Shown here: in pieces, positions 3,286-61,109 of the stretch
Layout of the letters: each line of letters starts with the position of its first letter
Numbering within the stretch: position 1 is the first letter of the stretch
NCBI GenBank assembly: GCA_017453485.1
Contig: JAFTEW010000058.1
Coordinates: 1,890 to 65,889, forward strand
Reading direction: 5' to 3'
From: Alphaproteobacteria bacterium
Lineage (GTDB): Bacteria; Pseudomonadota; Alphaproteobacteria; CAAHEQ01; UBA3637
Length of the DNA stretch: 64,000 nt
The notes under the pieces: model-generated
The model's database searches: none
Told to the model about the DNA's origin: nothing
Seen by the model: the letters and a program-made list of their open reading frames with translations, nothing else
Program-made: the position numbers and the translations under genes

Positions 3286-3762
3286 TTAAATGTATTTAAC
3301 AGAGAGAATTTCGTAGGATTTTTCACCCCGCGGTGTATTAACTTCTACAATATCACCGATTTCTTTTCCGATTAAAGCCTTTGCCAACGGGGATAATAAA
3401 GAAATCAATCCCTTTTCCAAATTGGCTTCATATTGGCCAACAATCTGATATGTTGATTCCTGTTCGGTATCGGCATCTGACAATTGAACCGTAGCTCCGA
3501 ATAGAACTTTATCCCCTGACAGCGTTGCCGTATCAATGACCTGCGCATGGGACAAAGCTCCTTCCAATTCTTGAATACGTCCTTCAATAAAAGACTGCTG
3601 TTCACGAGCCGAGTGGTATTCGGCATTTTCGGACAGATCCCCATGACCGCGAGCTTCCTCAATCGCCGCAACGATCCGCGGCCGTTCTTCAAATTTCAAA
3701 TGTTTCAATTCTTCGTTCAGGTTTTGGTACCCTTGTTTTGTCATTGGAACGCGTTCTTCCAT
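3286..3762 (-). CDS. greA: transcription elongation factor GreA
   Basis: [23 protein letters not shown]...[10 protein letters not shown] is typical of GreA, and the 158-aa length fits. The start is chosen at the ATG 8 nt after AAAGGA. The ORF-track start is 3807. Confidence 0.9.
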
Positions 3763-3967
3763 AGTCATAATCCTTTCAAAATGATAAAAAAAAGAACCAC
3801 CGCACAATCAGGCGGCAGAATTTGGATGGTGTTAATATAGCACTAAAAAAAACAAAATGCAAGCCTTTTATATTTTTGTTTTGAGCCTCCTTTTCGGTAT
3901 CCGCTTCCAGGGGACTTGCAATTTTGCCTAAACTAGTATATAACACCTGATAACATAGGAGTTTAAT

Positions 3968-4753
3968 ATGCAAATGAATTTGACCTTTATAGATAAATTA
4001 GGACGCGTTGTTTTAAACTTTTTCCAAGCCGCCGGAAAACTTGGGATCTTTTGCGGCCAAACCCTTTATCATTGTGTCACCCCACCCTTTTATATCGGGG
4101 CTGTTGGTCGGCAGATGATTGAAATCGGGTTTTATTCTTTACCGGTCGTTGCTCTGACAACCGTCTTTTCGGGGATGGTGATTGCTCTGCAAACCTATGA
4201 AGCCGTTGCGCAATTTTCCGCTGAAGGTGCTGTTTCTATGGTGGTTCGGGTGGCTGTTATTCGGGAATTGGCCCCTGTCATGGCCGGATTAATGGTGGCC
4301 GGTCGGATCGGAGCTGCCATGGCGGCCGAAATCGGAACAATGCGGGTGACCGAACAGATTGATGCTCTTTCCACTTTATCAACAAATCCGTTTAAATACC
4401 TGATTGCTCCACGCGTTATTGCCGGGATTGTCATGTTGCCGTTACTGGTTTTAATCGGAGATGTCCTAGGTATTTGCGGCGGCTATATGATTGGTGTTTA
4501 TAAACTGGGCTTCAATCCGACAACCTACCTGATGAATACCTGGCAATACTTAAAGCCGATGGATATTATTTCCAGTATGACCAAAGCCGGCGTTTTCGGA
4601 TTTATCATCACATTACTCGGATGCTATAACGGTTTTCAATCCCAAGGCGGTGCCCAAGGCGTCGGTCGTGCCACCACAAATGCCGTCGTATCAGCCAGTA
4701 TTCTCATTCTTATCTTTAACTACATCCTGACAGAAATGTTATTTAACGCATAG
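3968..4753 (+). CDS. mlaE: phospholipid/lipid ABC transporter permease MlaE
   Basis: The VRELAPVMAGLMVAGRIGAAMAAEIGTMRVTEQIDAL signature is characteristic of MlaE/Ttg2B permeases. Confidence 0.85.
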   Translation: MQMNLTFIDKLGRVVLNFFQAAGKLGIFCGQTLYHCVTPPFYIGAVGRQMIEIGFYSLPVVALTTVFSGMVIALQTYEAVAQFSAEGAVSMVVRVAVIRELAPVMAGLMVAGRIGAAMAAEIGTMRVTEQIDALSTLSTNPFKYLIAPRVIAGIVMLPLLVLIGDVLGICGGYMIGVYKLGFNPTTYLMNTWQYLKPMDIISSMTKAGVFGFIITLLGCYNGFQSQGGAQGVGRATTNAVVSASILILIFNYILTEMLFNA

Positions 4754-4764
4754 GGGGATTTTAT

Positions 4765-5571
4765 ATGGCTTTATTATTTAAACAAGAAAAGCAACCCGTT
4801 CAACCCAAAATTCGGATGACCGACGTTTGCAAATCGTTCGGCAAGAAAAAAGTCCTGAACCACTTGAATTTGGACGTTTATCCCGGAGAATCATTAGTCG
4901 TTATCGGTGGTTCCGGAACGGGTAAATCCGTCACGATTAAATGTATCTTGGGATTATTGGAACCGGACAGCGGCCGGGTTGAAATTGACGGTAAAGATGT
5001 TTTATCCTTAACCGATAAAGAACGCGAGCAAGTCCTGAGTCAATTTGGGATGTTGTTTCAAAATGCAGCCCTGTTTGACAGTCTTTCCGTTTGGGAAAAT
5101 GTGGCTTTTTCTTTGCTTCAAAATCAACATTTAAACCGTAAAGAAGCCCGTAAAATCGCCATTAAAAAATTGGCTCAGGTGGGCTTAAAAAGTGATGTGG
5201 CCGACGCCTATCCTGCCGATCTATCTGGCGGAATGCGCAAACGTGTCGGCCTGGCGCGCGCTATTGCCACTAATCCGGCCGTTATTTTCTTTGATGAGCC
5301 GACCACGGGTCTGGATCCGATTATGTCCGATGTCATCAATGACCTTATCCGGGATACGGTCAAAACTTTGGGGGCAACGGCTTTAACCATTACGCATGAT
5401 ATGAACTCTGCCCGTAAAATTGCGGATCGAATCGCCATGCTGTATGAGGGGAAAATCATTTGGATCGGTACGGTTAAAGAGCTGGATAAAACCAAGAATC
5501 CTTATGTCCGGCAATTTGTCGCCGGGTCGGCCCAGGGCCCCATCCAAATGGAAGTCAAGGTGGATAAATGA
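4765..5571 (+). CDS. mlaF: ABC transporter ATP-binding protein MlaF
   Basis: Walker A GGSGTGKS, LSGGMRKR signature and Walker B IFFDEP. Adjacent to mlaE. Confidence 0.85.
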   Translation: MALLFKQEKQPVQPKIRMTDVCKSFGKKKVLNHLNLDVYPGESLVVIGGSGTGKSVTIKCILGLLEPDSGRVEIDGKDVLSLTDKEREQVLSQFGMLFQNAALFDSLSVWENVAFSLLQNQHLNRKEARKIAIKKLAQVGLKSDVADAYPADLSGGMRKRVGLARAIATNPAVIFFDEPTTGLDPIMSDVINDLIRDTVKTLGATALTITHDMNSARKIADRIAMLYEGKIIWIGTVKELDKTKNPYVRQFVAGSAQGPIQMEVKVDK

Positions 5572-6956
5572 CAAAACGGACAACACAATATGTTTGTCAA
5601 AATTGCGGGGCTACCTTTGCCAAATGGACCGGCAAGTGCGAGGCTTGCGGTGAATGGAATACCTTGGTTGAGGAAGACTTGCCAACGGCGGACCATCCCC
5701 ATATGACAGCCGGTAAGGGCGGACGCAAAATTGAATTTCATGATTTACGTGGCGCACCCGAATTGGTTTTTCGTTTAAAATCCCAAATCGGTGAATTAGA
5801 CCGTGTTTGCGGCGGTGGTTTGGTGCCGGGGTCTGTCATTCTTGTCGGCGGTGACCCCGGAATCGGCAAATCAACCTTGCTTTTGCAAACGGTAGCCCAT
5901 TTGTCAGATACGGTTAATAAAGAAGGTAAGCCGACAAAATGCGTTTATATTTCAGGTGAAGAATCCGTTGACCAAGTTCGCCTGCGTGCTTTACGATTAG
6001 GCCTTTCCCAAGCAGCCGTTGATTTGGCCAGTGCCACAAATATTCGGGATATCGTAGCCACCCTAGACGGCGGAGAAACACCGGATGTTGTCATTATCGA
6101 TTCTATTCAAACCATGTATTCGGACACATTGGATTCTGCACCGGGCACAGTCGGTCAGGTGCGAGCCTGCGGCAACGAATTAATTCGGTTGGCTAAGCGA
6201 TTAAATTTTACCTTGTTTCTGGTCGGTCATGTGACAAAAGAGGGGACTTTGGCCGGCCCACGCGTTTTGGAGCATATGGTGGATACTGTCCTTTATTTTG
6301 AAGGCGACCGCGGACATCATTTCCGTATTTTACGATCCGTGAAAAATAGGTTTGGTGCGACCGATGAAATTGGCGTTTTTGAAATGACCGAAGAAGGTTT
6401 GGCCGAAGTTAAAAATCCGTCGGCCCTGTTTTTAGCAGAACGCCGCGGCAATATTGCCGGCAGTTGTGTCTTTGCCGGAATAGAGGGGTCCCGACCATTA
6501 TTGGTTGAAATTCAGGCCCTTGTCGCCCCGATAAGCGGTCCTTCTCCGCGCCGGGCCGTTGTCGGTTGGGATTCCAATCGATTGGCAATGATCTTGGCTG
6601 TTTTGGAAACCAGATGCGGGGTTGTATTCGGAGCCAAAGATGTCTATTTAAACGTGGCCGGCGGATTAAAATTAACTGAACCGGCCTGTGATATGGCGGT
6701 GGCTATGGCTTTGGTATCGGCATTGACCGGGCATCCGGTGCCGGCCGACATGATTGTATTCGGTGAAGTCGGCCTGTCCGGCGAGATTCGAGCCGTTCCG
6801 CAGCCGGATTTACGATTAAAAGAAGCGGAAAAATTAGGGTTTAAAAGAGCCTTGATTCCGCCGCGGAGAAGTGCTAAAAAGGAAAAAGCAGTGTCGGATT
6901 TACGCATCATTGAAATCGGACATTTACGGACATTGATGGATACATTTCGGGAGTAA
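5568..6956 (+). CDS. radA: DNA repair protein RadA
   Basis: N-terminal zinc ribbon CQNCGATFAKWTGKCEACGEWNT, GDPGIGKST Walker A, KNRFG motif and a Lon-like C-terminus. Confidence 0.95.
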   Translation: MTKRTTQYVCQNCGATFAKWTGKCEACGEWNTLVEEDLPTADHPHMTAGKGGRKIEFHDLRGAPELVFRLKSQIGELDRVCGGGLVPGSVILVGGDPGIGKSTLLLQTVAHLSDTVNKEGKPTKCVYISGEESVDQVRLRALRLGLSQAAVDLASATNIRDIVATLDGGETPDVVIIDSIQTMYSDTLDSAPGTVGQVRACGNELIRLAKRLNFTLFLVGHVTKEGTLAGPRVLEHMVDTVLYFEGDRGHHFRILRSVKNRFGATDEIGVFEMTEEGLAEVKNPSALFLAERRGNIAGSCVFAGIEGSRPLLVEIQALVAPISGPSPRRAVVGWDSNRLAMILAVLETRCGVVFGAKDVYLNVAGGLKLTEPACDMAVAMALVSALTGHPVPADMIVFGEVGLSGEIRAVPQPDLRLKEAEKLGFKRALIPPRRSAKKEKAVSDLRIIEIGHLRTLMDTFRE

Positions 6957-11640: not shown

Positions 11641-12183
11641 TTAATAATTTTCGGCTTTGATCTGGAAATATGCCTTTTCATGGGCACAAACCGGACAAAC
11701 CTCTGGTGCTTTTTTCCCAATCACGATATGACCGCAATTAGAGCATTGCCAAATGGTATCTCCATCCCGGGAAAAGACAATACCGTCTTGTATATTTTTT
11801 AACAATTTACGATAACGTTCTTCATGCTCTTTTTCAATTTGACCAACCAACTCAAACAACGTTGCAATTTTATCAAACCCTTCCTCACGGGCCGTTTTGG
11901 CAAAGCCGGCATACATATCCGTCCATTCATAATTTTCTCCGTTAGCCGCATCTGCCAAGTTCGTCATTGTATTAGGAACCGCTCCATCATGGAGTAATTT
12001 GAACCAAATTTCGGCATGTTCCTTTTCGTTGGCGGCCGTTTCTTCAAAAATCTTTGAAATTTGGACATAGCCCTCTTTTTTGGCTTTTGACGCATAGTAT
12101 GTATATTTATTGCGTGCCTGGGATTCCCCGGCAAAAGCCGTCATTAAGTTTTGTTCGGTTTTGGACCCTTTTAATTCTGCCAT
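11641..12183 (-). CDS. rbr: rubrerythrin
   Basis: N-terminal ferritin-like diiron domain ([19 protein letters not shown]...EKEHAEIW...EKEHEERY) plus a C-terminal rubredoxin-like CSNCG...CPVC. Confidence 0.9.
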
Positions 12184-40817: not shown

Positions 40818-41495
40818 ATGATTCGATTAAAAATAGCTTCTGATTCTTTAAAACTGATGGCTTTAATTGCCATGACATTAGATCATATTGATAAAATTTT
40901 GGGATTCGGAGGTTATCTCGGTTGTACCATTGGTCGAACGGCTTTCCCGATTTTTGCCTATCTGCTGATTCAACATTTTTGTGTCTTTCATCCGGTAAAA
41001 AAATATCTTGTGCGTTTGACGATTTCCGGCTGTTTGACAAGTTTTGTTTTATTGCCGTTTCAACCTGTTGGCGGGAATATTCTGTTGACTTTTTTACTGG
41101 CGGTGATTTTTTTGTCTGCCTGCGAATTTATCTGTGCCAAAGTATCCTCGATTTTTTGGCAAGCCTATCTCCTAATTGGTTTATTCTTAATTTTATTACC
41201 GTTTATTTTAGTATCTGATTACAGTCTGCTCGGTTTTCTGTTTATCTTATCGCTTTACACCTATACACGATTCCCGATAAGGACAAATTGTGCTGCTGTT
41301 TTTCTGACTGGTGTTTTGATGAACACAAACACTCTTTCGGCGGCATTGATAACGGCATTGACCTTGCTTATTTTATTGTTTGGTATAACTGTTATTTCCG
41401 GGAAAAGGCGTTTAAAGTGGTGGGTGTTTTATGCCTATTATCCGGGACATTTATTTCTTTTATATCTTATTCGGGATGTATTGCAAAACATATGA
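40818..41495 (+). CDS. TraX-family membrane protein
   Basis: LKLMALIAMTLDHIDKIL N-terminal motif and a polytopic profile typical of the TraX family. Confidence 0.65.
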   Translation: MIRLKIASDSLKLMALIAMTLDHIDKILGFGGYLGCTIGRTAFPIFAYLLIQHFCVFHPVKKYLVRLTISGCLTSFVLLPFQPVGGNILLTFLLAVIFLSACEFICAKVSSIFWQAYLLIGLFLILLPFILVSDYSLLGFLFILSLYTYTRFPIRTNCAAVFLTGVLMNTNTLSAALITALTLLILLFGITVISGKRRLKWWVFYAYYPGHLFLLYLIRDVLQNI

Positions 41496-52800: not shown

Positions 52801-53409
52801 ATGGATTTAACCGTTTTATTCACCATTTCACATGGCGTCTATTTGACGGGTGCCCGTGATTTAGACAATCGTCTGGTCGGCAGTTGTATTGATGCCGTTA
52901 TGGTGGTTGAAGCCTCTCCCGCACAAATTCTTGTTTCCCTAAATAAACAATCATATACGGCACAAACGGTTTTGAAAACACGACGTTTTTCTCTGACTGT
53001 TTTATCTGATGATGCATCATCAGATCTCATTCAACTGTTCGGTATGAATACTTCTCGCACCACGGATAAGTGGTTGACAGGTTCATATACCCTAACGGAT
53101 GATTTACCGATACATAACGACGCCGTCGCCGGTTTAATTGTCACCGTTGATTCCGTTTCGGAAACATCTGGGCATTATGTGTTGTTGTGTTCTGTTGAAC
53201 AGGCTATTCCTGGGACGATGAAAAACCCTTTGATATATCATGATTACCAAAATAGAAAAAGAAAGGAAAAAATAATGTCTGAAACAAAAAAATGGGTTTG
53301 TTCCGTTTGCGGTTATGTCTATGATGGAGAAGTTCCGTTTGAAGAATTACCCGAAGATTGGGTCTGCCCTTTATGTGGTGAACCGAAATCCGTTTTTGTC
53401 CAAGAATAA
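52801..53409 (+). CDS. flavin reductase-like domain fused to C-terminal rubredoxin (high-molecular-weight rubredoxin-like)
   Basis: N-terminal flavin_reduct-like domain (SHGVYLTGA...[10 protein letters not shown]). The C-terminus reads [12 protein letters not shown]...EDWVCPLCG, a rubredoxin pattern. Confidence 0.8.
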
Positions 53410-53497: not shown

Positions 53498-53573
<76 letters not shown>

Positions 53574-53598
53574 AAGCCTTTTTAACAAAGGCTTTTTT
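53574..53598. terminator. bidirectional terminator shared by tRNA-Ala and the convergent four-gene operon
   Basis: AAAGCCTT-tttaaca-AAGGCTTT followed by TTT. The 8-bp stem starts at the terminal A of the CCA (53573). The stop codon of the minus-strand 159-aa ORF lies in the T-run. Confidence 0.65.
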
Positions 53599-54076
53599 AT
53601 ATGCTTTTTTCCATATTCATACCCGTCGGCAATTTCTTTTGAATCGGCTGAATCATATAGTTCAAAAAATCCACAAAAGTTGCAAAATGCAGGATGACCT
53701 GATAGGTGTATCTGTCCAATAATTGATATTCCTTGACACTGAAATCATAAACAATCAAAGTTTCCCACCCGTATCCCAATAACAATTTTTTTCGCATCAC
53801 GGCATTATTTTGGCAAAATTGATAATTTTGCAAAATACCGGGATGATGAAAAGCCCCCTTATTTCGTTCAATGTTTTCCAAAGAAAACAAATCCACGCCA
53901 TTCCAAGATAATCCGTTTGTCATCGCCAAAAAGGATACATAATCCAACGGAATGGGGGGCACACCGGCCTTAACTAATTTGACAGAAGTCTGTTGCACCA
54001 ATTTCGGCTCAATGGCCGGAAAAACAACGGCATAATTTTCATACAGACATTTTAAGCATTGTTTTAATTCAGACAT
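53597..54076 (-). CDS. SUKH-1 (SMI1/KNR4)-like putative immunity protein
   Basis: ...GVPPIPLDYVSFLAMTNGLSWNGVDLFSL... and the C-terminal ...LLLGYGWETLIVYDFSVKEYQLLDRYTYQV...FATFVDFL match the SMI1_KNR4 pattern (LP.dY..FL...NG; ig..g....l.d; sF.eFL). The gene starts 4 nt after the HNH-like gene. Confidence 0.6.
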   Translation of the reverse strand: MSELKQCLKCLYENYAVVFPAIEPKLVQQTSVKLVKAGVPPIPLDYVSFLAMTNGLSWNGVDLFSLENIERNKGAFHHPGILQNYQFCQNNAVMRKKLLLGYGWETLIVYDFSVKEYQLLDRYTYQVILHFATFVDFLNYMIQPIQKKLPTGMNMEKSI

Positions 54077-54080
54077 CGGA

Positions 54081-54761
54081 TTACCTCCCCGGCATTGTTT
54101 TTAGGGCTATATCCCGCAAAGCACTTTGGGTAAAGCCCGACAAAACAGAACGGTCTTGTTTATTTTTACCGCCGGAACCGGTAAACAATCCCATCGGGAT
54201 ATACACTTTCCCCCGTGGTACCGGCACATAAAGTTGCTTCGGAGTCAGATATCCTTCCGGTCCGATAATTTGTTTATCAATATAGCGATGGATTAAATCG
54301 TGAAACGGACGAGCCTGGATAAAGACCATATTCTCAAAAGAGATTGTTCCACCATAATCCAACGGATATTTTAGATGGACAACAAAATTTTCAGGTTGTT
54401 GTCCCCGTTTCATATAGAATAATCCTTCTTCCGTCACGCCGGCTGAGCGTAAATCATTGGCGTGATGATAGGATAAAAAACGTACAAAGTCACGGATAGT
54501 CCGATTTAATTGTTTCTGACGACCGATCAGATCCGAATTATCCTGTGCATAATGATTAACCGCCATTAAATCCATACCCGGAAAATTCATGCTGTTAAAC
54601 AAATTTTCCCAGTAAGCCTGCCCCTGTTCTTCCAATTGTAAATTGTTCAGTTCGGCATCATCAAACAAGGGTGTTTCCAACAACTGATTCCAATCGCTGA
54701 ATACATCTTCCGCATTCAATGTGGTTGACAAGGACAGTTGTTCCGTTTTTTCTGTTGTCAT
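54081..54761 (-). CDS. putative nuclease toxin/effector with colicin-DNase-like HNH (beta-beta-alpha-Me) domain
   Basis: DFVRFLS...MKRGQQP...VVHLKYPLDYGGTISFENMVFIQARPFHDLIH aligns by eye with colicin E9 DNase DFRKKFW...MKVGKAP...[32 protein letters not shown]. The N-terminal ~110 aa are acidic, there is no signal peptide, and the C-terminal tail is basic. Confidence 0.6.
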   Translation of the reverse strand: MTTEKTEQLSLSTTLNAEDVFSDWNQLLETPLFDDAELNNLQLEEQGQAYWENLFNSMNFPGMDLMAVNHYAQDNSDLIGRQKQLNRTIRDFVRFLSYHHANDLRSAGVTEEGLFYMKRGQQPENFVVHLKYPLDYGGTISFENMVFIQARPFHDLIHRYIDKQIIGPEGYLTPKQLYVPVPRGKVYIPMGLFTGSGGKNKQDRSVLSGFTQSALRDIALKTMPGR

Positions 54762-54762
54762 T

Positions 54763-56958
54763 TTATGCCTTTAATTGTTCGTCGTCGTCTTCCAATTCCA
54801 ACATATCATTCTGCATTAAGGCTCGCAAAGCAGCCATATCCGTTTCTTCCCGTTGGGCAACCACCCAATATGGGACAAACGGTGCCGTCGGTAAAGAGCA
54901 TTTTTTACGCATTTTTTTATCCAAATACCAACGGGGCGCATCCGCCAAAATCGGCCGATTTAAAAAGCCCTGAAATAAGACATATTGTTTTAACATATTC
55001 AAACTCATCATTTCGGAAGCTCCAACAACATTGGAACTTTGTAATGAGCGGGATACGTTGGCCGCAAACGGATTTGTCTGCATAGACACCCCTTCCGTCC
55101 GAGATGAACTGGCCACTTCAATGGTCCGCGAACCAATCATTTTAGAAAACCGTTCAGCGGTTTGTTCATTGTTTTGGGCTAAAATAACTTTGGCGGCCGT
55201 TGTTGTAATGATTGTTTCCAAATCATCTTTTCCATATTGACCGGAAATTTGTCCCAAATCTTGTCCGATTAACAAATAAGCCACTTTTTGCCCCCGTCCG
55301 ACAGCCGGTCCGTCTTTAACGGCAGCTAATTTCGGCATTTGCGGGAATTCGTCCAAGACAAATAACACCGGATAAGGTCCGACTTTAACCCCATCTGACC
55401 CCATATCATTCGGCTTATTGGAAATCAGGTATGAACTCATCAATTCAACAAACACACCTGTAATCACGTTTAATGTCCGGGCATCAACCTGATTAACTGA
55501 CAAGTAAACCGATATTGGCTTCATTTCACCGGTAATGGGATCAATCATTCCCCGCAAATCACGGAAGGTTAAATCACTGAATTTTGTCCGTGTCCGAACA
55601 GCCGAGTTTTTAAAGATGTTAATGCCGGAAAATGCCGTTGACAAAATAGATCCGCGTTCCTTGTCCGGAGTTCCGGCTAACTGTGATAATTCAACTGTCG
55701 CCCGTCGGGCATAACCGAATCGTTCACTTTCGGCAATTGCCAATTTTAACGCATCTGCCCCGGCATCTGCAAAAGCCGCCGCCTGATCCCCTTCATCTTG
55801 GCGCCGTTTTAAGTCGGCATTAATTTTCATTTGGATATCTGTCCACCAATCAAAAATCATAGCAATACACGGCTCATTTCCTTGCCAACTTTCCGGCAAA
55901 CCTTCCCAGGTTCCGACCGGTGCATAATTATCCAACGTCAGCGTTCCCTCTTTTAACGCTTCCAGAGAAATACGCGCACTCGGATCTGTCATATCCATAT
56001 AATAGGTTTCCAATACTTCGGCATCTTCTTTATCAAACGATCCTTCACTCAATTTTGAAATAAAGTAATCATTGGCTCTGGCCCGCTCGCATTTACTGCA
56101 AATAAAGTGTAGAAAACCGGACATAGCGTTTCGTCCTGTTTTAGACCAGTGCGGATCTGCTCCGCCTTTCGGTTCTTCTACCAAGACCGCCACCATTGAG
56201 TCAATATACATATCCCGGCCCGGCCCTAACGGTGGCAAACAAGTTGGGGATAACGGGTTCCAACTGGGATAATAAACACCTTTTTCCGGATCATCCTCGG
56301 CTCCCCAGTTAATCACAAAGACCGGTCCTTGTGTTGCCCGATACCCAGACGTGTTATAACACAATTCAGGTTTGGGGTCGTTAATAATTAAACTTAATCC
56401 CGGTGATTCCAATATGGTTGGGATCACAACCCCAGCTGTTTTACCGGTTCCCGGAGGTGCCACCACCAAAGCCGATAACGTTTCCGGCATTTTCAATAAT
56501 TTTCCCTTAAATCGTCCCAAGACAATGACAAAGCCCTTAAAAAGTCCCATTTTTTCAACATCAGCATAGGTTGCTTTTCGGCCGCTGCCAAACACATTGG
56601 GGCGATAACTATAAGGATTTGTCACAATGCGATAGACAACAAAAGCACCGGATAAAACAAATGCCATATAGGGTAAATACAAAATCGGAGATGGATTATT
56701 GGTTGTTTTTAAAACGCCCAGATACTGGCGAAAAACACCGACGATTCCACTCAACGGAGAAACAACAGACGGCTTCCAAACTTTTGTCCATGCCCATCCA
56801 AGGGATTCAACCCCGAAACCGACCAAAACAAAATTAACCACCGGAATAAAAATAAGCAACAACAGCCACGTCAACGGTATCGCTAAAAAGAAACTTAATA
56901 AAATTCTGGCAATACACTTTTGTTGTTCTTCGTATGCTTCGTCTCGTTTAAAAGCCAT
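54763..56958 (-). CDS. virD4: VirD4/TraG-family type IV coupling protein (T4CP)-like ATPase
   Basis: Two N-terminal TM helices, FGSGRKATYADVEKMGLF (compare hGsArwA), Walker A APPGTGKTAGVVIPT, Walker B PVLFVLDEFPQM and IGQDLGQISGQYGKD...TAERFSKMIG. The C-terminus is acidic (ELEDDDEQLKA). Confidence 0.85.
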   Translation of the reverse strand: MAFKRDEAYEEQQKCIARILLSFFLAIPLTWLLLLIFIPVVNFVLVGFGVESLGWAWTKVWKPSVVSPLSGIVGVFRQYLGVLKTTNNPSPILYLPYMAFVLSGAFVVYRIVTNPYSYRPNVFGSGRKATYADVEKMGLFKGFVIVLGRFKGKLLKMPETLSALVVAPPGTGKTAGVVIPTILESPGLSLIINDPKPELCYNTSGYRATQGPVFVINWGAEDDPEKGVYYPSWNPLSPTCLPPLGPGRDMYIDSMVAVLVEEPKGGADPHWSKTGRNAMSGFLHFICSKCERARANDYFISKLSEGSFDKEDAEVLETYYMDMTDPSARISLEALKEGTLTLDNYAPVGTWEGLPESWQGNEPCIAMIFDWWTDIQMKINADLKRRQDEGDQAAAFADAGADALKLAIAESERFGYARRATVELSQLAGTPDKERGSILSTAFSGINIFKNSAVRTRTKFSDLTFRDLRGMIDPITGEMKPISVYLSVNQVDARTLNVITGVFVELMSSYLISNKPNDMGSDGVKVGPYPVLFVLDEFPQMPKLAAVKDGPAVGRGQKVAYLLIGQDLGQISGQYGKDDLETIITTTAAKVILAQNNEQTAERFSKMIGSRTIEVASSSRTEGVSMQTNPFAANVSRSLQSSNVVGASEMMSLNMLKQYVLFQGFLNRPILADAPRWYLDKKMRKKCSLPTAPFVPYWVVAQREETDMAALRALMQNDMLELEDDDEQLKA

Positions 56959-56975
56959 TTAACCCCTCATACTCC

Positions 56976-58091
56976 TTAAAATAAATCCCTGATTTCGTTT
57001 AACTCCGTTTCTGTCCCTTTGGATTGTGCAACCGGCAATGCCGATCCGAATGCCGGTAATTCTTCGGGACCGCCCAAATCGGTCCGACAGACAACAACAT
57101 CCATTTTCTTCCACGTTTCCATCATATCGGCCGCATTGATAATCGTGCCTTCTTTTTCAATCAAGATAGGAACAACGGTCTGCGGGAACCCTTTATCGGT
57201 CACCTTTTTAGCAAAAGTTTTTGCCTCTGTCAAGAGCGTATAAACCGGCGATGTCCGATGGGATGTTTCCGAAAACCAAAGCGGTTCCTCATCGTTAAAG
57301 AAAGCCTCATCCGCCAACCAATCTCCTTTTTCCCCATCCGTCAGACATAGGACAATTTTATCCGTTGAAATACCGACATAGGACAAATTTGCTTTTCCGA
57401 TACTTACATCTTTGACAACCTGATAGTTTGCTGCCGATAAGATAGCGACCAAATCTTCCTCTAACCGGATTCGTTCCGGCATTTGAATATCCTCCAAAGG
57501 CATATTACTGATTTCTTCACTCAGGAACGCCGGCGGCTCGGTCATATCTGCATTAGCCGGAGCCATCTGCGCCGACATATTATAGTTATTTGCCGGTTCA
57601 TTTTGCGGTGAAACTTCCATCCTGGTCGGACCGACAGCGCTTTTTTCGGCATCCATTGTTCGACCCGTCTGTTTAATAGCCGGTCGTCCGGCAGAGACCA
57701 ACGGTTTAGGCCGCACTTTTTTATGAGAAGCCTTTGATTTGATTTTGATTTTTTTCCGAATAACTTTCTTTTGATCGGGTTTAAAGAAAAAGGATTTGAT
57801 TTTTTGATAGATCAGTTTAATTGATTTGCGCCAGGAAATTTTAACCGACACCCACCACAAAATGCCGAATATGGGAATCATCAGTAAAACGCTGATCAAC
57901 CAAAACCAAGAATAGGAATTTGAAATAACCCATCCGGATTGAAATTCTGACCAGACATGTTGCCAATGTCTCACTGAAAACAGGCGGAATTCCCAATTTT
58001 TATAAAAATATTCACGCCGATACCAGCCGAAAAAAATAATTCCGACCACCAATCCGACCCTGACAGTTCGTCCCCAATTACGCATGATCAA
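56976..58091 (-). CDS. membrane-anchored protein with Lys-rich linker and C-terminal NERD-like domain (tentative)
   Basis: Two or three N-terminal TM helices and a KKIKIKSKASHKKVRPKP linker. The C-terminal ~170 aa (LSYVGISTDKIVLCLTDGEKGDW...SPVYTL...VVPILIEKEG) loosely resemble NERD / restriction-endonuclease-like architecture. The gene ends 17 nt before the virD4-like gene. Confidence 0.4.
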   Translation of the reverse strand: MIMRNWGRTVRVGLVVGIIFFGWYRREYFYKNWEFRLFSVRHWQHVWSEFQSGWVISNSYSWFWLISVLLMIPIFGILWWVSVKISWRKSIKLIYQKIKSFFFKPDQKKVIRKKIKIKSKASHKKVRPKPLVSAGRPAIKQTGRTMDAEKSAVGPTRMEVSPQNEPANNYNMSAQMAPANADMTEPPAFLSEEISNMPLEDIQMPERIRLEEDLVAILSAANYQVVKDVSIGKANLSYVGISTDKIVLCLTDGEKGDWLADEAFFNDEEPLWFSETSHRTSPVYTLLTEAKTFAKKVTDKGFPQTVVPILIEKEGTIINAADMMETWKKMDVVVCRTDLGGPEELPAFGSALPVAQSKGTETELNEIRDLF

Positions 58092-58167
58092 CCTTTCGTT
58101 TTCAATCGAATTGACCCCATTATAACCAAAAAAGAGTCAAAAAACCAGTAAAAAATTCTTTTTTATG

Positions 58168-58204
58168 AAATAAATCCGAAAGAGAACCTCTTTCGGATTT
58201 ATTT
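58168..58204. terminator. terminator hairpin downstream of the autotransporter gene
   Basis: AAATAAATCCGAAAGAG-aacc-TCTTTCGGATTTATTT inverted repeat. Confidence 0.6.
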
Positions 58205-58223
58205 TGACCCGATACCTATGCAA

Positions 58224-60026
58224 TTAGAAGTGATACTTCAAAGTCGCATAAACACCATTCGTGTATTGTTTTTTCCGGAAAGCACCTTCATAGGTTGCCG
58301 ACAATTCCATCGGTCCGTTTGTCAGTTTCAAACTGGCACCGGCTTCCGTTCCGAACCGTTTCATTTTTTCACCGCGATAGGTGTATAATTTCTGTCCGGC
58401 ATAGCTGACACCGGCTTGATCATCGCCTTGCTTGATATCATATGTCAAGGCTAAATGAGCCGACGGCACCAAGCGCCAACCATGATCTTCTTTAAAGACG
58501 TGTTGGACATGGACTCCGGCCAAACCGGTCACGATATCCGTATTTTTGGTATGAACATCAACACCATAGGCATTTTTATAGCTATCAGAATCGATCCGGA
58601 TATAACGGGCACCGACACCGGCATCAATCCAGCCCCATTCATAGCCGACCGTTCCCTGACCGCCATAAACATCTGCATCCCATTTAACACCGTTGTTGTC
58701 GTATTTCATTTTGCTGTAACTGGCCATAGCGGAGATAAAGAACTGACTCGGCTTCCAAGCCCCATAGACAAATCCCGTATAACCGTCCAAGTCTGTTTTG
58801 CCACCGATATCGGCATCAAAACGACCGGATGTTTGGCTGTATCCGATACCCAATAATGTATTTGATCCGACAAATGTATCAATACCCAGGGCAATACCGG
58901 CTTGATGCATAGCGAAACCTTGTTTATCCATATCATTGCGGGTATGTGTATATAAGCCTTCTACCCACGGTGTAATATGGTTGCGTTCCCGCATACCGGC
59001 CAAAATTTCTTCATCATGTGCCGGCACAATGTGGTTATAGATAGCCCGAATGGTTGACACGGTTGTTTCCACAGCCGCATATTGGGCAGCGGCCGTTGCC
59101 GGACGCAAGTGGTCCAAGGCCGAAGCCACATTGGCGGATTGTCCCATTTGGACCAAGGTTGTAATGTTATCAAAGAAAGCATTACCACTTGTTCCCATCA
59201 TGGTTTTCAACAACGCCGCCTGTTCCGAAGTATAACCTTGCTCGGAAATACCGTTTTCATCTTTTTGTGTAACGGTATAGGCACCGCTGTTTTCTTGAAT
59301 GTTATAAAGCGGATTGTCATTAACATGCAACGAATTCTGGTTGGCATCAATACTGACATCCAATCCGTTTTCGTCAACGACACCATTGTCAATCACAAAA
59401 TTGACATTACCGGTGACGGTATCGGCTTCCACCAAAGTTTTACCACGGGTGTTGGTTCCGATACGAATACCGGCATTGCTGTCAAAGTTAACCGTTCCCG
59501 TTCCGGCGGAAGAACTCCAATCTGTATTATCAAAATTTTCAATCCCGTTTTGGAAAGAAATCGTTCCCGTATTGGTAACCCCACCATTGATGGCTGAATC
59601 ACCGTTTTGGAAAGTCATTGTTCCGGAGTTTGTAATATTTCCGTTCATTCCGGTTGTTCCGTCAAAGGTCATTGTCCCAGCATTTTGGGTATTACCGTTG
59701 ACCGTGTTATCTTTATTCCGGAATGTTAAAGTCCCGGTATTTTCAATATCACCGTTTACATTGATATCATTGGATTCAAACACAACAACTTCCGGTGTTT
59801 CCACATAGACGGCCTGTGTATAATCATCCGTTCCTAAATTGATTTGTTCCCAATCTGTTTTCGTAAAAACCGCACTTCCGTCTGTTGGTGCCTGAACACC
59901 ATTTTCCTTATAGTCAATAATACCTGAACCATAAGCGGAAAAGTCCGTAATATTTGTTGTTGCATTGGCGGTAAGGGCACACATACACCCCAAAGCAACG
60001 ATCGCTGTCATCATTTTTGTTTTCAT
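58224..60026 (-). CDS. autotransporter (type Va) outer membrane protein with repeat-rich passenger
   Basis: Signal peptide (ALGCMCALTANA). The passenger carries iterated N.G..N.GT.TF repeats. The C-terminal ~280 aa form a beta-barrel domain ending ...TLKYHF. Confidence 0.8.
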   Translation of the reverse strand: MKTKMMTAIVALGCMCALTANATTNITDFSAYGSGIIDYKENGVQAPTDGSAVFTKTDWEQINLGTDDYTQAVYVETPEVVVFESNDINVNGDIENTGTLTFRNKDNTVNGNTQNAGTMTFDGTTGMNGNITNSGTMTFQNGDSAINGGVTNTGTISFQNGIENFDNTDWSSSAGTGTVNFDSNAGIRIGTNTRGKTLVEADTVTGNVNFVIDNGVVDENGLDVSIDANQNSLHVNDNPLYNIQENSGAYTVTQKDENGISEQGYTSEQAALLKTMMGTSGNAFFDNITTLVQMGQSANVASALDHLRPATAAAQYAAVETTVSTIRAIYNHIVPAHDEEILAGMRERNHITPWVEGLYTHTRNDMDKQGFAMHQAGIALGIDTFVGSNTLLGIGYSQTSGRFDADIGGKTDLDGYTGFVYGAWKPSQFFISAMASYSKMKYDNNGVKWDADVYGGQGTVGYEWGWIDAGVGARYIRIDSDSYKNAYGVDVHTKNTDIVTGLAGVHVQHVFKEDHGWRLVPSAHLALTYDIKQGDDQAGVSYAGQKLYTYRGEKMKRFGTEAGASLKLTNGPMELSATYEGAFRKKQYTNGVYATLKYHF

Positions 60027-60044: not shown

Positions 60045-61109
60045 TTAGTTATTAATACGTTCAAATTGATTTTGTAATGTCATTTTATAAATGGCTGTTT
60101 TACCATTTTCCTGACTTGAAATCAATTTAGCCGCTCCATCAACATACCGAACGGGAACACCACCCAAAGATGTTGCGTAAGACGTTCCGTTTGTATTTCC
60201 GACATAAAGCGTCGTTCCGTCAGAAACCATTCCCGTCATTTGAGCTCCGTTCAGGTTAAATACAGACGGTGTTCCGTCACAATATAATTCCGTTCCGGTT
60301 GTCCAAAATAATTTTCCACCGGCAACTGCCATCTCTTTTACTGTGCCACTGACAACTTCCGTTCTGGTTGCATCCGATGTATTTTTGGCATCATAGGAAA
60401 TAATACCGTTACCATCAGAGAAATAAACTTTATCATCGGATTGCGTAGCCATTGTCGGAAAATACGGAGCATGTTCCCGACCGTTTTGTTTTGTTACATC
60501 AAACCGATCCCCACTTTTTACTGCGCGAGTCACGGAACCGATAGCTGTATTTCCCGTATTGATACCCAGAATAATGATGTTGTTTTCATCATACATATAG
60601 GCAACCGGGCTTTTTAATTTAGCCGGACTTGTCGCATGTTCTTGGGCATACACTTTATTTGTTGTTGTCGTAAAACCACCCAAAGCGTTGCCATTCGGTG
60701 TGTTTATAAACACATTACCGTCTTCATCAGCTGTCGCGACGACACCGGTCTGTTCATTAACCAAGGAGCCGGCATTGGCACCCAAGACACCCTTACCACT
60801 GGCAAATCCTTGCTTGCCGTCCAAAGAAACCCGCACAAACGGCGCGGAGTTGGTGACTACCTCCATTCCTCCGGCCGGATGCGGATAGGTTACACCATCA
60901 ATCACTACTGTCCTGGCTTTTGGAACCGTATATTTCGCTTGACTGCGGTATGTCATAACAAATCCGTTAGACACTCCCAACACCTTATCAATCGGTGCAT
61001 TATCAAAGCAACCGGACTTTACGTCGATTTCGCCCTCATAGGCTCTTGCCCCGAAAACAGAACTTAAAGCCAACAACCCCGCCATCAGCGGACTTTTTTT
61101 GATATTCAT
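60045..61109 (-). CDS. secreted hypothetical protein (Gly/Thr/Asn-rich, beta-rich, possibly propeller-like)
   Basis: Signal peptide (LLALSSVFGARA). The gene ends 18 nt upstream of the autotransporter gene. I recognised no family. Confidence 0.5.
   Translation of the reverse strand: MNIKKSPLMAGLLALSSVFGARAYEGEIDVKSGCFDNAPIDKVLGVSNGFVMTYRSQAKYTVPKARTVVIDGVTYPHPAGGMEVVTNSAPFVRVSLDGKQGFASGKGVLGANAGSLVNEQTGVVATADEDGNVFINTPNGNALGGFTTTTNKVYAQEHATSPAKLKSPVAYMYDENNIIILGINTGNTAIGSVTRAVKSGDRFDVTKQNGREHAPYFPTMATQSDDKVYFSDGNGIISYDAKNTSDATRTEVVSGTVKEMAVAGGKLFWTTGTELYCDGTPSVFNLNGAQMTGMVSDGTTLYVGNTNGTSYATSLGGVPVRYVDGAAKLISSQENGKTAIYKMTLQNQFERINN

Follow-up and report, generated by a model that had tools for sequence, protein, structure and literature searches.

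The present analysis deals with a window of 64,000 nucleotides (the whole stretch of contig JAFTEW010000058.1 that was examined), taken from an uncultured member of the Alphaproteobacteria, and specifically with a compact operon near its right-hand end. The operon consists of four minus-strand open reading frames, which encode a VirD4/TraG-type coupling protein of 731 amino acids (aa) together with three smaller proteins, referred to here by their lengths as p371, p226 and p159. The frames lie exactly where the original prediction had placed them, with intergenic gaps of 17, 1 and 4 nt, and are, in the order of transcription:

56976-58091, minus strand: p371, 371 aa from a TTG start
54763-56958, minus strand: VirD4/TraG coupling protein, 731 aa
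54081-54761, minus strand: p226, 226 aa
53597-54076, minus strand: p159, 159 aa, directly 3' of p226

The true start of p371 is likely to be the ATG at 58085, two codons inside the TTG, which is favored by both the gene callers and the homologues and which gives a protein of 369 aa.

The coupling protein and the conservation of the operon

The 731-aa protein is identified by its profile matches as a bona fide, full-length VirD4/TraG coupling protein. It matches PF02534 at an E-value of 1e-52 (180 bits, cut-off 20.1) and, also above the Pfam gathering scores, PF12696 (TraG-D_C, 78 bits) and PF10412 (TrwB_AAD_bind, 72 bits). The VirD4/TraG models of NCBIfam match it as well, but under their equivalog cut-offs. 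The type IV coupling protein (T4CP) hallmarks noted earlier from the sequence are all present, namely a Walker A motif (APPGTGKT), a Walker B motif (LFVLDE, at 532), hydrophobic segments near the N-terminus (14-54 and 90-109) and a C-terminal tail that is acidic (net charge -7.6). In a pairwise comparison, residues 98-721 are 33% identical (E 6e-111) to the VirD4 of an Erythrobacter virB2-B11/virD4 operon. The closest plasmid relatives, at 33-35% identity and with E-values down to 2e-95, are likewise VirD4 proteins, whose genes close canonical virB2-B11/virD4 operons of alphaproteobacterial megaplasmids. In PADLOC the coupling protein matches mad8 only, and weakly (E 6.7e-4, 17 bits), and phmmer searches of the PDB with all four operon proteins gave nothing meaningful.

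The operon recurs across a broad group of gut bacteria. The homologues of p226 number 118, all of them unnamed, and the organism, where it is given, is almost always an uncultured alphaproteobacterial metagenome-assembled genome (MAG). A scan of GTDB with one genome per species yielded 50 module loci, all from uncultured Alphaproteobacteria (one MAG carries the label Lactobacillales), and those loci with a stated source come from the gut of ruminants, humans or rabbits. A metagenome scan, in which more distant family members served as queries, gave 41 further loci. The order p371-VirD4-p226-p159 is kept in all 50 of the GTDB loci and in 40 of the 41 metagenome loci with a contig reaching that far. 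The gene neighborhood, whose conservation had been left as a check on the original prediction, is thus maintained across about 90 related loci of uncultured gut Alphaproteobacteria. Identity to the proteins of the window ranges over these loci from 57 to 93% for VirD4, from 31 to 79% for p226 (41-79% over the 50 GTDB species), from 26 to 76% for p159 and from 27 to 64% for p371. The flanks of the module are housekeeping genes that differ from genome to genome. Taken with the conserved order, these variable flanks fit a core operon that is inherited vertically and kept by purifying selection, and not a mobile element or a patchy defense island.

Two additional genes are found beside the module in some relatives and are absent from the window. 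A gene for a 93-aa RHH_4 protein (70-95% identity) lies upstream of p371 in 22 loci, and along with it, just upstream of p371 and in divergent orientation, comes a gene for a 180-aa DnaJ-domain protein (22-26 loci). In the locus designated L016 the two are found at 6137-6418 (RHH_4) and 5458-6012 (DnaJ domain), and they are present too in L005, L006 and about 20 more loci. The RHH_4 protein could be a regulator of the virD4 islet, as the four-gene operon will be called below.

The three partner proteins

Searches of Pfam, of NCBIfam and of PDB sequences (phmmer and profile) with p226 returned no match. Its AlphaFold (AF2) model has a pLDDT of 79 overall and above 90 for residues 50-190, and in Foldseek it produces weak matches (best E 0.19), the top ones mostly HNH domains. 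As weak Foldseek matches alone are no evidence, the HNH assignment rests on a profile search and on the Pfam matches of distant family members. With a profile of 42 orthologues as the query, 1.84 billion representatives were searched, and 552 proteins were reached at E<=1e-3, 296 of them at E<=1e-10. Outside the VirD4-linked clade the match spans profile positions ~55-185 and often forms the C-terminal part of a long protein, and the distant relatives display the motif VHHKxPLDDGGTNxFxNLVLIxNxPYH. When 60 relatives (family members reached at E<=1e-14) were scanned, 12 matched the Pfam HNH family PF01844, and the N-termini of other relatives were found to carry PT-TG, Tox-PAAR-like, PT-HINT, RHS/YD-shell, WXG100, Hcp and MuF/portal regions. 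These HNH matches and toxin-type N-termini place the p226 core (~46-190) within a polymorphic-toxin HNH domain family. The earlier description of the protein as HNH-DNase-like therefore holds with respect to homology, but the histidine that acts as general base is missing.

Of the two His residues in the HH dyad of HNH nucleases, the first coordinates the metal and the hydrolytic water is directed by the second (PMC3113570). The dyad is H129-L130 in the window, and in 95 of 96 VirD4-linked copies the His is followed by Leu, Ile, Val or Met; HH is found in none of them, as against 88 of 147 members in the wider family. An hhalign comparison with the HNH motif of the ColE9 DNase (E 0.06; the ColE9 sequence was checked against 1bxi) places H129 on H102 and L130 on H103. 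The metal-ligand histidines H129, H154 and H158 are kept together with the structural Asn N144, so that p226 is predicted to fold and to bind metal, and perhaps DNA, without the canonical catalytic base. Two tyrosines beside the metal site, Tyr132 and Tyr136, are conserved specifically in the clade. The nucleolytic activity of p226 has probably been lost.

The protein stands alone, with no Pfam domain and no known trafficking domain, and is conserved, not polymorphic. A Pfam search revealed neither an XVIPCD nor another known effector domain of type IV secretion systems (T4SSs). The N-terminus, acidic and variable, contains the motif W-[DE]-x-L. Two further stretches are conserved, a GSGGKNKQDRS loop that is disordered and the C-terminal end, MPGR. 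A set of distant VirD4-linked orthologues (P0364, P0367-P0369, P0387) starts with MWDWS or MWEWS and has low-complexity linkers rich in Pro, Gln and Tyr, up to ~200 aa long, before the core. The divergent gut lineage to which locus L102 belongs has a p226-like protein without the GSGGK...MPGR tail. The Tox-REHH family (bioRxiv 10.64898/2026.09.22.753552) was considered for p226 and set aside, since it is another toxin domain and is not associated with T4SSs.

The gene for p159 always lies immediately downstream of that for p226, in all loci long enough to show it. The protein matches the NCBIfam model NF038335 (YrhA family) above its cut-off of 55, with 58.6 bits and an E-value of 6.5e-16. Together with five orthologues it also gives repeated sub-threshold matches to SUKH-1, SUKH-5 and SUKH-6, the best at 3.4e-5. 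On these matches p159 is assigned to the YrhA family of the SUKH superfamily, and the earlier reading of the protein as SUKH-like was correct. SUKH proteins are recurrent immunity partners of HNH toxins (PMC3113570), and by analogy p159 is proposed to be a binding partner or chaperone of p226. It is mildly basic, with a pI of 8.4. In one metagenome assembly, L002 (ERZ28653825), where VirD4 and p226 are identical to those of the window, codon 88 of p159 is changed by a single base from TGC to TGA, a nonsense codon:

L002 ~12018-12020 (corresponding to window ~53813-53815): nonsense codon in p159

At all loci that extend far enough to include it, the gene for the third partner, p371, immediately precedes that for VirD4. 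It has 820 homologues, none of them named, and among the 120 listed none has a Pfam domain. Searches with p371 of Pfam (E<=1), NCBIfam, PADLOC and the PDB (phmmer and profile) gave no meaningful match; the matches to ATP-synthase b in the PDB sequence search were rejected as compositional. The AF2 model (pLDDT 80.5) comprises a helical N-terminal membrane domain, a disordered linker and a C-terminal alpha/beta domain, and p371 is predicted to be an inner-membrane protein with two transmembrane (TM) helices. The N-terminal ~100 aa are conserved and W-rich, with many invariant Trp and polar residues, the linker (~101-200) is basic, and the C-terminal domain (~201-371) is acidic, with a net charge of -13. 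Just upstream of the p371-like gene in L102 lies a gene (3642-4136) for a 164-aa protein that is a stand-alone paralogue of the p371 membrane domain.

The original prediction had described p371 as NERD-like. This cannot be upheld, as the NERD profile PF08378 matches neither p371 nor one distant orthologue at E<=1, and no other Pfam match is found. What is recovered by Foldseek is a generic PD-(D/E)xK-like fold, with XisH first (E 5e-3, probability 0.91) and weaker matches to EndoMS/NucS, Hjc, N.BspD6I and SfsA; the PD-(D/E)xK matches as a group have E-values of 5e-3 to 0.1 and probabilities of 0.7-0.9, with TM-scores of just 0.26-0.41 on the target. The invariant residues of the domain are D252 and an acidic/aromatic cluster, GDWLADE...PLWFSE..HR. 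A catalytic Lys after D252 is not conserved, position 255 being K, Q, A, V, E, S or P across the homologues, and a catalytic PD-(D/E)xK motif was not recognizable in their alignment. In our reading, the C-terminal domain of p371 is a nuclease fold that is highly derived or has no catalytic function, and it may serve as a membrane-held binding platform beside VirD4; p371 is proposed to be an auxiliary subunit of VirD4.

VirB channel genes in relatives and the setting of the window

Within the 64 kb, neither tblastn with the Erythrobacter VirB2-11 and MobA proteins and the VirB8-11 proteins of the clade, nor Pfam analysis of the genes, found a VirB or relaxase gene. Pfam analysis of the window's genes likewise found no integrase or plasmid gene, so that the earlier claim of their absence is borne out. 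No oriT-like repeat was seen. The description of the T4CP as an orphan is thus true of the window, but it does not extend to the clade, because virB operons are found in relatives.

The first search of the relatives, by tblastn with the VirB proteins of the Erythrobacter operon, detected VirB10 and VirB11 directly upstream of the module in L016 (genome CASEYR01). The order of genes in this locus is a giant virB10, virB11, the divergent DnaJ-domain gene, the RHH gene, p371, virD4, p226 and p159. The VirB11 of L016, when used as the query, gave more than 1,400 matches, and the best-scoring 120 protein clusters listed are 70-91% identical. A chromosomal operon in L062-L068 runs in the order virB8, a gene for a lipoprotein of 58-59 aa, a second virB8, virB9 (CagX), a giant virB10 (TrbI) and virB11. 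The lipoprotein between the two VirB8 paralogues has the lipobox LAAAC and holds the position of virB7 in islet C of Rickettsia. The giant VirB10 is 2,140-2,202 aa long and has a TrbI domain at its C-terminus only; its size is reminiscent of the CagY protein of Helicobacter, and no tandem repeats of note occur in its gene. In L065 this gene is split into two, of 894 and 1,284 aa. The positions of the lipoprotein and VirB10 genes in representative loci are:

L062 543-722: lipoprotein gene between the virB8 paralogues
L064 867-1043: lipoprotein gene between the virB8 paralogues
L062 3391-9984: giant virB10
L064 3568-9990: giant virB10
L066 3379-9987: giant virB10

Two genomes carry both loci on separate contigs. 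In JAFXIF01 the virB operon is on contig 44 (L062) and the virD4 module on contig 4 (L049); in CASECF01 the operon is on contig 60 (L066) and the module on contig 29 (L030).

The GC content is even across the whole window, and the remainder of the window is made up, by Pfam, of housekeeping genes, bar a few genes without a Pfam match. They include metG, PEPCK, LptC/LptA, PFK, RNase E, Obg, SmpB and PrmA, and further CorA, Sua5, xseA, mscL and queH. An Rfam scan of the window found two tRNAs and nothing further. The features adjoining the operon, and other genes of note, are:

53498-53573, plus strand: tRNA-Ala(cgc), convergent to the operon
53573-53595, no strand assigned: hairpin with a 9-bp stem and 3 G-C pairs, filling the gap between the 3' end of the tRNA-Ala and the p159 stop codon
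58092-58223, minus strand: intergenic stretch of 132 nt between the autotransporter gene and p371
58224-60026, minus strand: 600-aa autotransporter
60045-61109, minus strand: 354-aa protein without a Pfam match
40818-41495, plus strand: TraX-family protein (PF05857, 4e-24)
52801-53409, plus strand: flavin reductase-rubredoxin fusion
11641-12183, minus strand: rubrerythrin

The original prediction had ended the operon in a bidirectional terminator shared with the tRNA gene. The hairpin exists and is a possible shared terminator, but with its 3 G-C pairs it is not separable statistically from chance matches, as the region holds 6 terminator-like sites where 7.0 are expected from shuffles and there is no excess. 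No att-like context was detected at the tRNA-Ala. The operon promoter is presumed to lie within 58092-58223, where no minus-strand site was called. On the operon's own strand, the autotransporter gene and, beyond it, the gene for the 354-aa protein come directly upstream, and in relatives other genes occupy their position. The TraX-family gene stands amid housekeeping genes with no other transfer genes near it. The rubredoxin fusion and the rubrerythrin point to an anaerobic lifestyle, which agrees with the gut and rumen sources of related contigs.

A proposed dispersed VirB/D4 system and its relation to known systems

The explanation that we favor, and consider reasonably probable, is that a chromosomal VirB/D4 T4SS, dispersed, inherited vertically and core to this large clade of uncultured gut Alphaproteobacteria, has its virD4 islet in this operon, and that the operon contains a captured and probably disarmed toxin-immunity pair. 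The T4CP appears to be the VirD4 of the clade's dispersed system, and not an extra or dedicated coupling protein. The mechanism that may be envisaged starts from the assignments made above for VirD4, the HNH-family core and the YrhA/SUKH protein, from the synteny, from the virB operons in relatives and from the loss of the second His; to these it adds, conjecturally, the physical association of the partners, their role as cargo or auxiliaries, and the loss of activity. An HNH-toxin/SUKH-immunity cassette would have been captured beside virD4, probably as T4SS cargo, after which p226 would have lost its water-activating His. The p226/p159 pair would since have been kept under purifying selection, either as a non-nucleolytic client of VirD4 or as an auxiliary pair. 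In the cytoplasm p159 would bind p226 in the way that immunity proteins bind toxins. Anchored next to the VirD4 hexamer via its conserved TM domain, p371 would present an acidic cytoplasmic platform, on which, and on the acidic VirD4 tail, p226 could dock by means of its basic C-terminal tail and its conserved N-terminal motif. Once docked, p226 might either be translocated by the T4SS or stay in the coupling complex and choose other substrates, in analogy to DotL-DotM-DotN-IcmSW.

Several points weigh against this explanation. The link to a T4SS channel comes from three related MAGs (L016, JAFXIF01 and CASECF01) and not from the window's own genome. A complete channel in the clade is presumed, the component genes seen being virB8-virB11 and a virB7-like gene but not virB3, virB4 or virB6. 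The loss of the general base is deduced from an alignment, and its function might have passed to another residue. For p371, the PD-(D/E)xK-like fold was assigned from Foldseek matches with E-values of 5e-3 to 0.1. The charge of the p226 C-terminal tail has a median of +3 in the window's sub-clade and of 0 in the wider family, and the tail is missing in the L100-L110 group; as the positive charge is confined to the sub-clade, the argument for a basic secretion signal is weakened and this candidate was downgraded. Finally, the p159 nonsense codon in L002 could be an assembly error or may be a natural variant. If real, it would indicate that loss of full-length p159 is tolerated, which fits a non-toxic p226.

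A bolder version of events, which is possible but which we hold to be doubtful, is that a P-type T4SS has evolved a multi-subunit coupling complex from domesticated conflict proteins, with p371 as an inactivated, membrane-anchored protein of restriction-endonuclease fold, and with a dead HNH toxin bound by its former SUKH immunity protein, all of them obligatory auxiliaries of VirD4. They would select substrates, or bind or pilot DNA without a canonical relaxase. That T4CPs act with auxiliary proteins is generally accepted, the best-described case being DotL-DotM-DotN-IcmSW (PMC12857230). If the bolder version is true, Dot/Icm would no longer be the only system with a coupling complex, and a toxin-immunity pair would clearly have been exapted into parts of a secretion machine.

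The original prediction offered two models, of which the one that took the operon for a dedicated effector-immunity cassette with its own coupling protein survives in part. The T4CP would indeed serve a T4SS encoded elsewhere, and the downstream pair is of HNH-toxin/SUKH-immunity descent; the active cassette and the dedicated T4CP are not retained, the VirD4 appearing to be part of the clade-core system. Were the cassette active, p226 would be a DNase toxin sent by the T4SS into bacteria or host cells, and p159 would protect the producer. This is consistent with the homology of the p226 core to genuine polymorphic-toxin HNH domains, with the retained metal-ligand His and structural Asn residues (H129, N144, H154, H158), with a YrhA/SUKH protein as the usual immunity partner (PMC3113570), with the existence of a T4SS in the clade and with the precedents of bactericidal T4SSs and of the T4SS-secreted toxin VbhT (PMC5675462, PMC6759196). 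However, the water-activating His is replaced in nearly every linked copy and never retained, p226 occurs in one copy and shows strong conservation across 50 species or more, no known effector domain was found, a p159 nonsense allele sits next to an intact p226 in L002, and the pI of p159 is unlike that of the acidic, DNA-mimicking inhibitors of some nuclease toxins. The missing His, the conservation and the nonsense allele mean that an active cassette is not the best reading, and we regard it as unlikely. Distinctly less probable still is a Dtr-like DNA-processing module in which p371 and p226, perhaps with the RHH protein, bind or nick DNA and pass it to VirD4 for export or uptake as a substitute for a relaxase. 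Both partners resemble nucleases in fold, and MOBC relaxases have the PD-(D/E)xK fold (PMC12857230). In addition, p226 retains its metal ligands with Tyr132 and Tyr136 conserved near the metal site, and the RHH_4 gene upstream of p371 in 22 loci recalls the RHH accessory gene beside a conjugative T4CP. Yet p371 lacks a recognizable catalytic Lys and p226 a general base, neither an oriT-like repeat nor a relaxase came to light, the window lacks the RHH gene, and a charge of -13 on the C-terminal domain of p371 is unusual for a DNA-binding surface.

The second of the two models, which is not supported, saw in the operon a self-contained defense module, independent of secretion. An FtsK/HerA-superfamily translocase and its nuclease-fold partners would together target the DNA of phages or plasmids. 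A hexameric ATPase with nuclease-fold partners is a common defense architecture, and the weak PADLOC match to mad8 also speaks for such a role. We consider it very unlikely, as none of the four proteins has a significant PADLOC match, the ATPase is orthologous over its full length to the VirD4 of canonical virB operons, and both nuclease-fold partners are without key catalytic residues. Furthermore, the module occurs throughout the clade with its synteny kept and is set in housekeeping contexts, neither patchy nor in defense islands, and in L016 it adjoins virB10-virB11. The original prediction had also named, as a circumstance that would count against it, that the locus might lie at the edge of an ordinary conjugative element; a remnant of such an element, or of a mobilizable one, is considered along with it. 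Genes for VirD4 are typical of such elements, and the closest plasmid relatives lie in megaplasmid virB/D4 operons with a MobA/MobL relaxase nearby. This is the least probable alternative, hardly to be expected given that no relaxase, integrase, channel or plasmid gene occurs within 64 kb, that the GC content is uniform, that no att-like context marks the adjoining tRNA, and that the module is chromosomal in every clade member found, with a T4CP 57-93% identical.

The classes of component involved are already known, being VirD4, an HNH toxin domain, SUKH and the PD-(D/E)xK fold. What is new, as far as the literature was searched, is the fixed four-gene association, the apparent disarmament of the toxin and a Rickettsia-like split T4SS in gut Alphaproteobacteria; a search of the literature on RF32 or gut Alphaproteobacteria with a T4SS found no description. 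The favored explanation indicates that a widespread uncultured gut clade, found in ruminants, humans and rabbits, has a conserved chromosomal T4SS with a Rickettsia-like gene order, and this bears on the dealings of small-genome gut bacteria with hosts, protists and other bacteria. Good descriptions of T4CP auxiliary factors exist chiefly for Dot/Icm and conjugative relaxosomes. The islet provides a testable case of a VirD4 permanently partnered with three dedicated proteins. Moreover, an HNH-toxin/SUKH pair that has been long retained despite the apparent loss of its catalytic base is a useful model for toxin-immunity exaptation.

The p226/p159 pair is comparable to the polymorphic HNH/SUKH pairs of Zhang, Iyer and Aravind (2011; PMC3113570), to which the p226 core is homologous and in which, as here, a SUKH-type gene lies directly downstream. 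In contrast to these, p226 stands alone without a known trafficking domain, has lost the second His, is conserved and is linked to VirD4; type IV secretion is not mentioned in that work. In the X-T4SS of the Xanthomonadales (X-Tfe/X-Tfi), a VirB/D4 T4SS also handles toxins that are recognized by VirD4 and paired with immunity proteins. No XVIPCD was detected by Pfam in the operon proteins, and the X-Tfes are diverse and dispersed and do not form one conserved pair fixed to virD4.

The original prediction knew of no characterized system with a comparable arrangement, but a precedent exists in VbhT/VbhA (FicTA) of the Bartonella Vbh/VirB T4SS, a toxin/antitoxin pair that lies beside T4SS and coupling/Dtr genes and whose toxin is secreted by the T4SS (PMC5675462). 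Pairs of this type have been recruited as T4SS cargo and later exapted (PMC5675462). They differ from the islet in that the toxin is FIC and not HNH, the antitoxin is of another family, VbhT is active and has a BID signal, and the genes are plasmid-borne and not a clade-wide core.

The partnership of a T4CP with a membrane-anchored auxiliary that has a cytoplasmic substrate-binding domain, and with small soluble adaptor or chaperone proteins, recalls the Dot/Icm system. There, dotM adjoins dotL. The resemblance to DotL, DotM, DotN and IcmS/IcmW (PMC12857230) is one of functional analogy only, as the T4CP of the clade is VirD4-type (P-type, IVA) and not DotL-type. In addition, PDB sequence searches with p371, p226 and p159 returned no DotM, DotN or IcmSW, and structures of these proteins are absent among the 50 best Foldseek matches shown for the p226 and p371 models.

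In gene order there is a likeness to the Rickettsiales vir homolog (rvh) T4SS (Gillespie et al. 2009, PMC2653234), which, as is proposed for the clade, is a chromosomal, vertically inherited VirB/D4 system in separate islets. It has a duplicated VirB8 with a small lipoprotein gene between the copies, followed by virB9-virB10-virB11, and VirD4 is its substrate receptor. The order in Rickettsia islet C is virB8a-virB7-virB8b-virB9b-virB10-virB11-virD4 (PMC2653234), and the virB operon of the clade reproduces this order minus virD4. The likeness is one of gene order only, and the gut bacteria depart from it in their giant VirB10, in being anaerobic gut Alphaproteobacteria and in the place of virD4, which is detached from virB11 (nearly joined in L016 only) and found in its own four-gene operon with three partner proteins not described for rvh.

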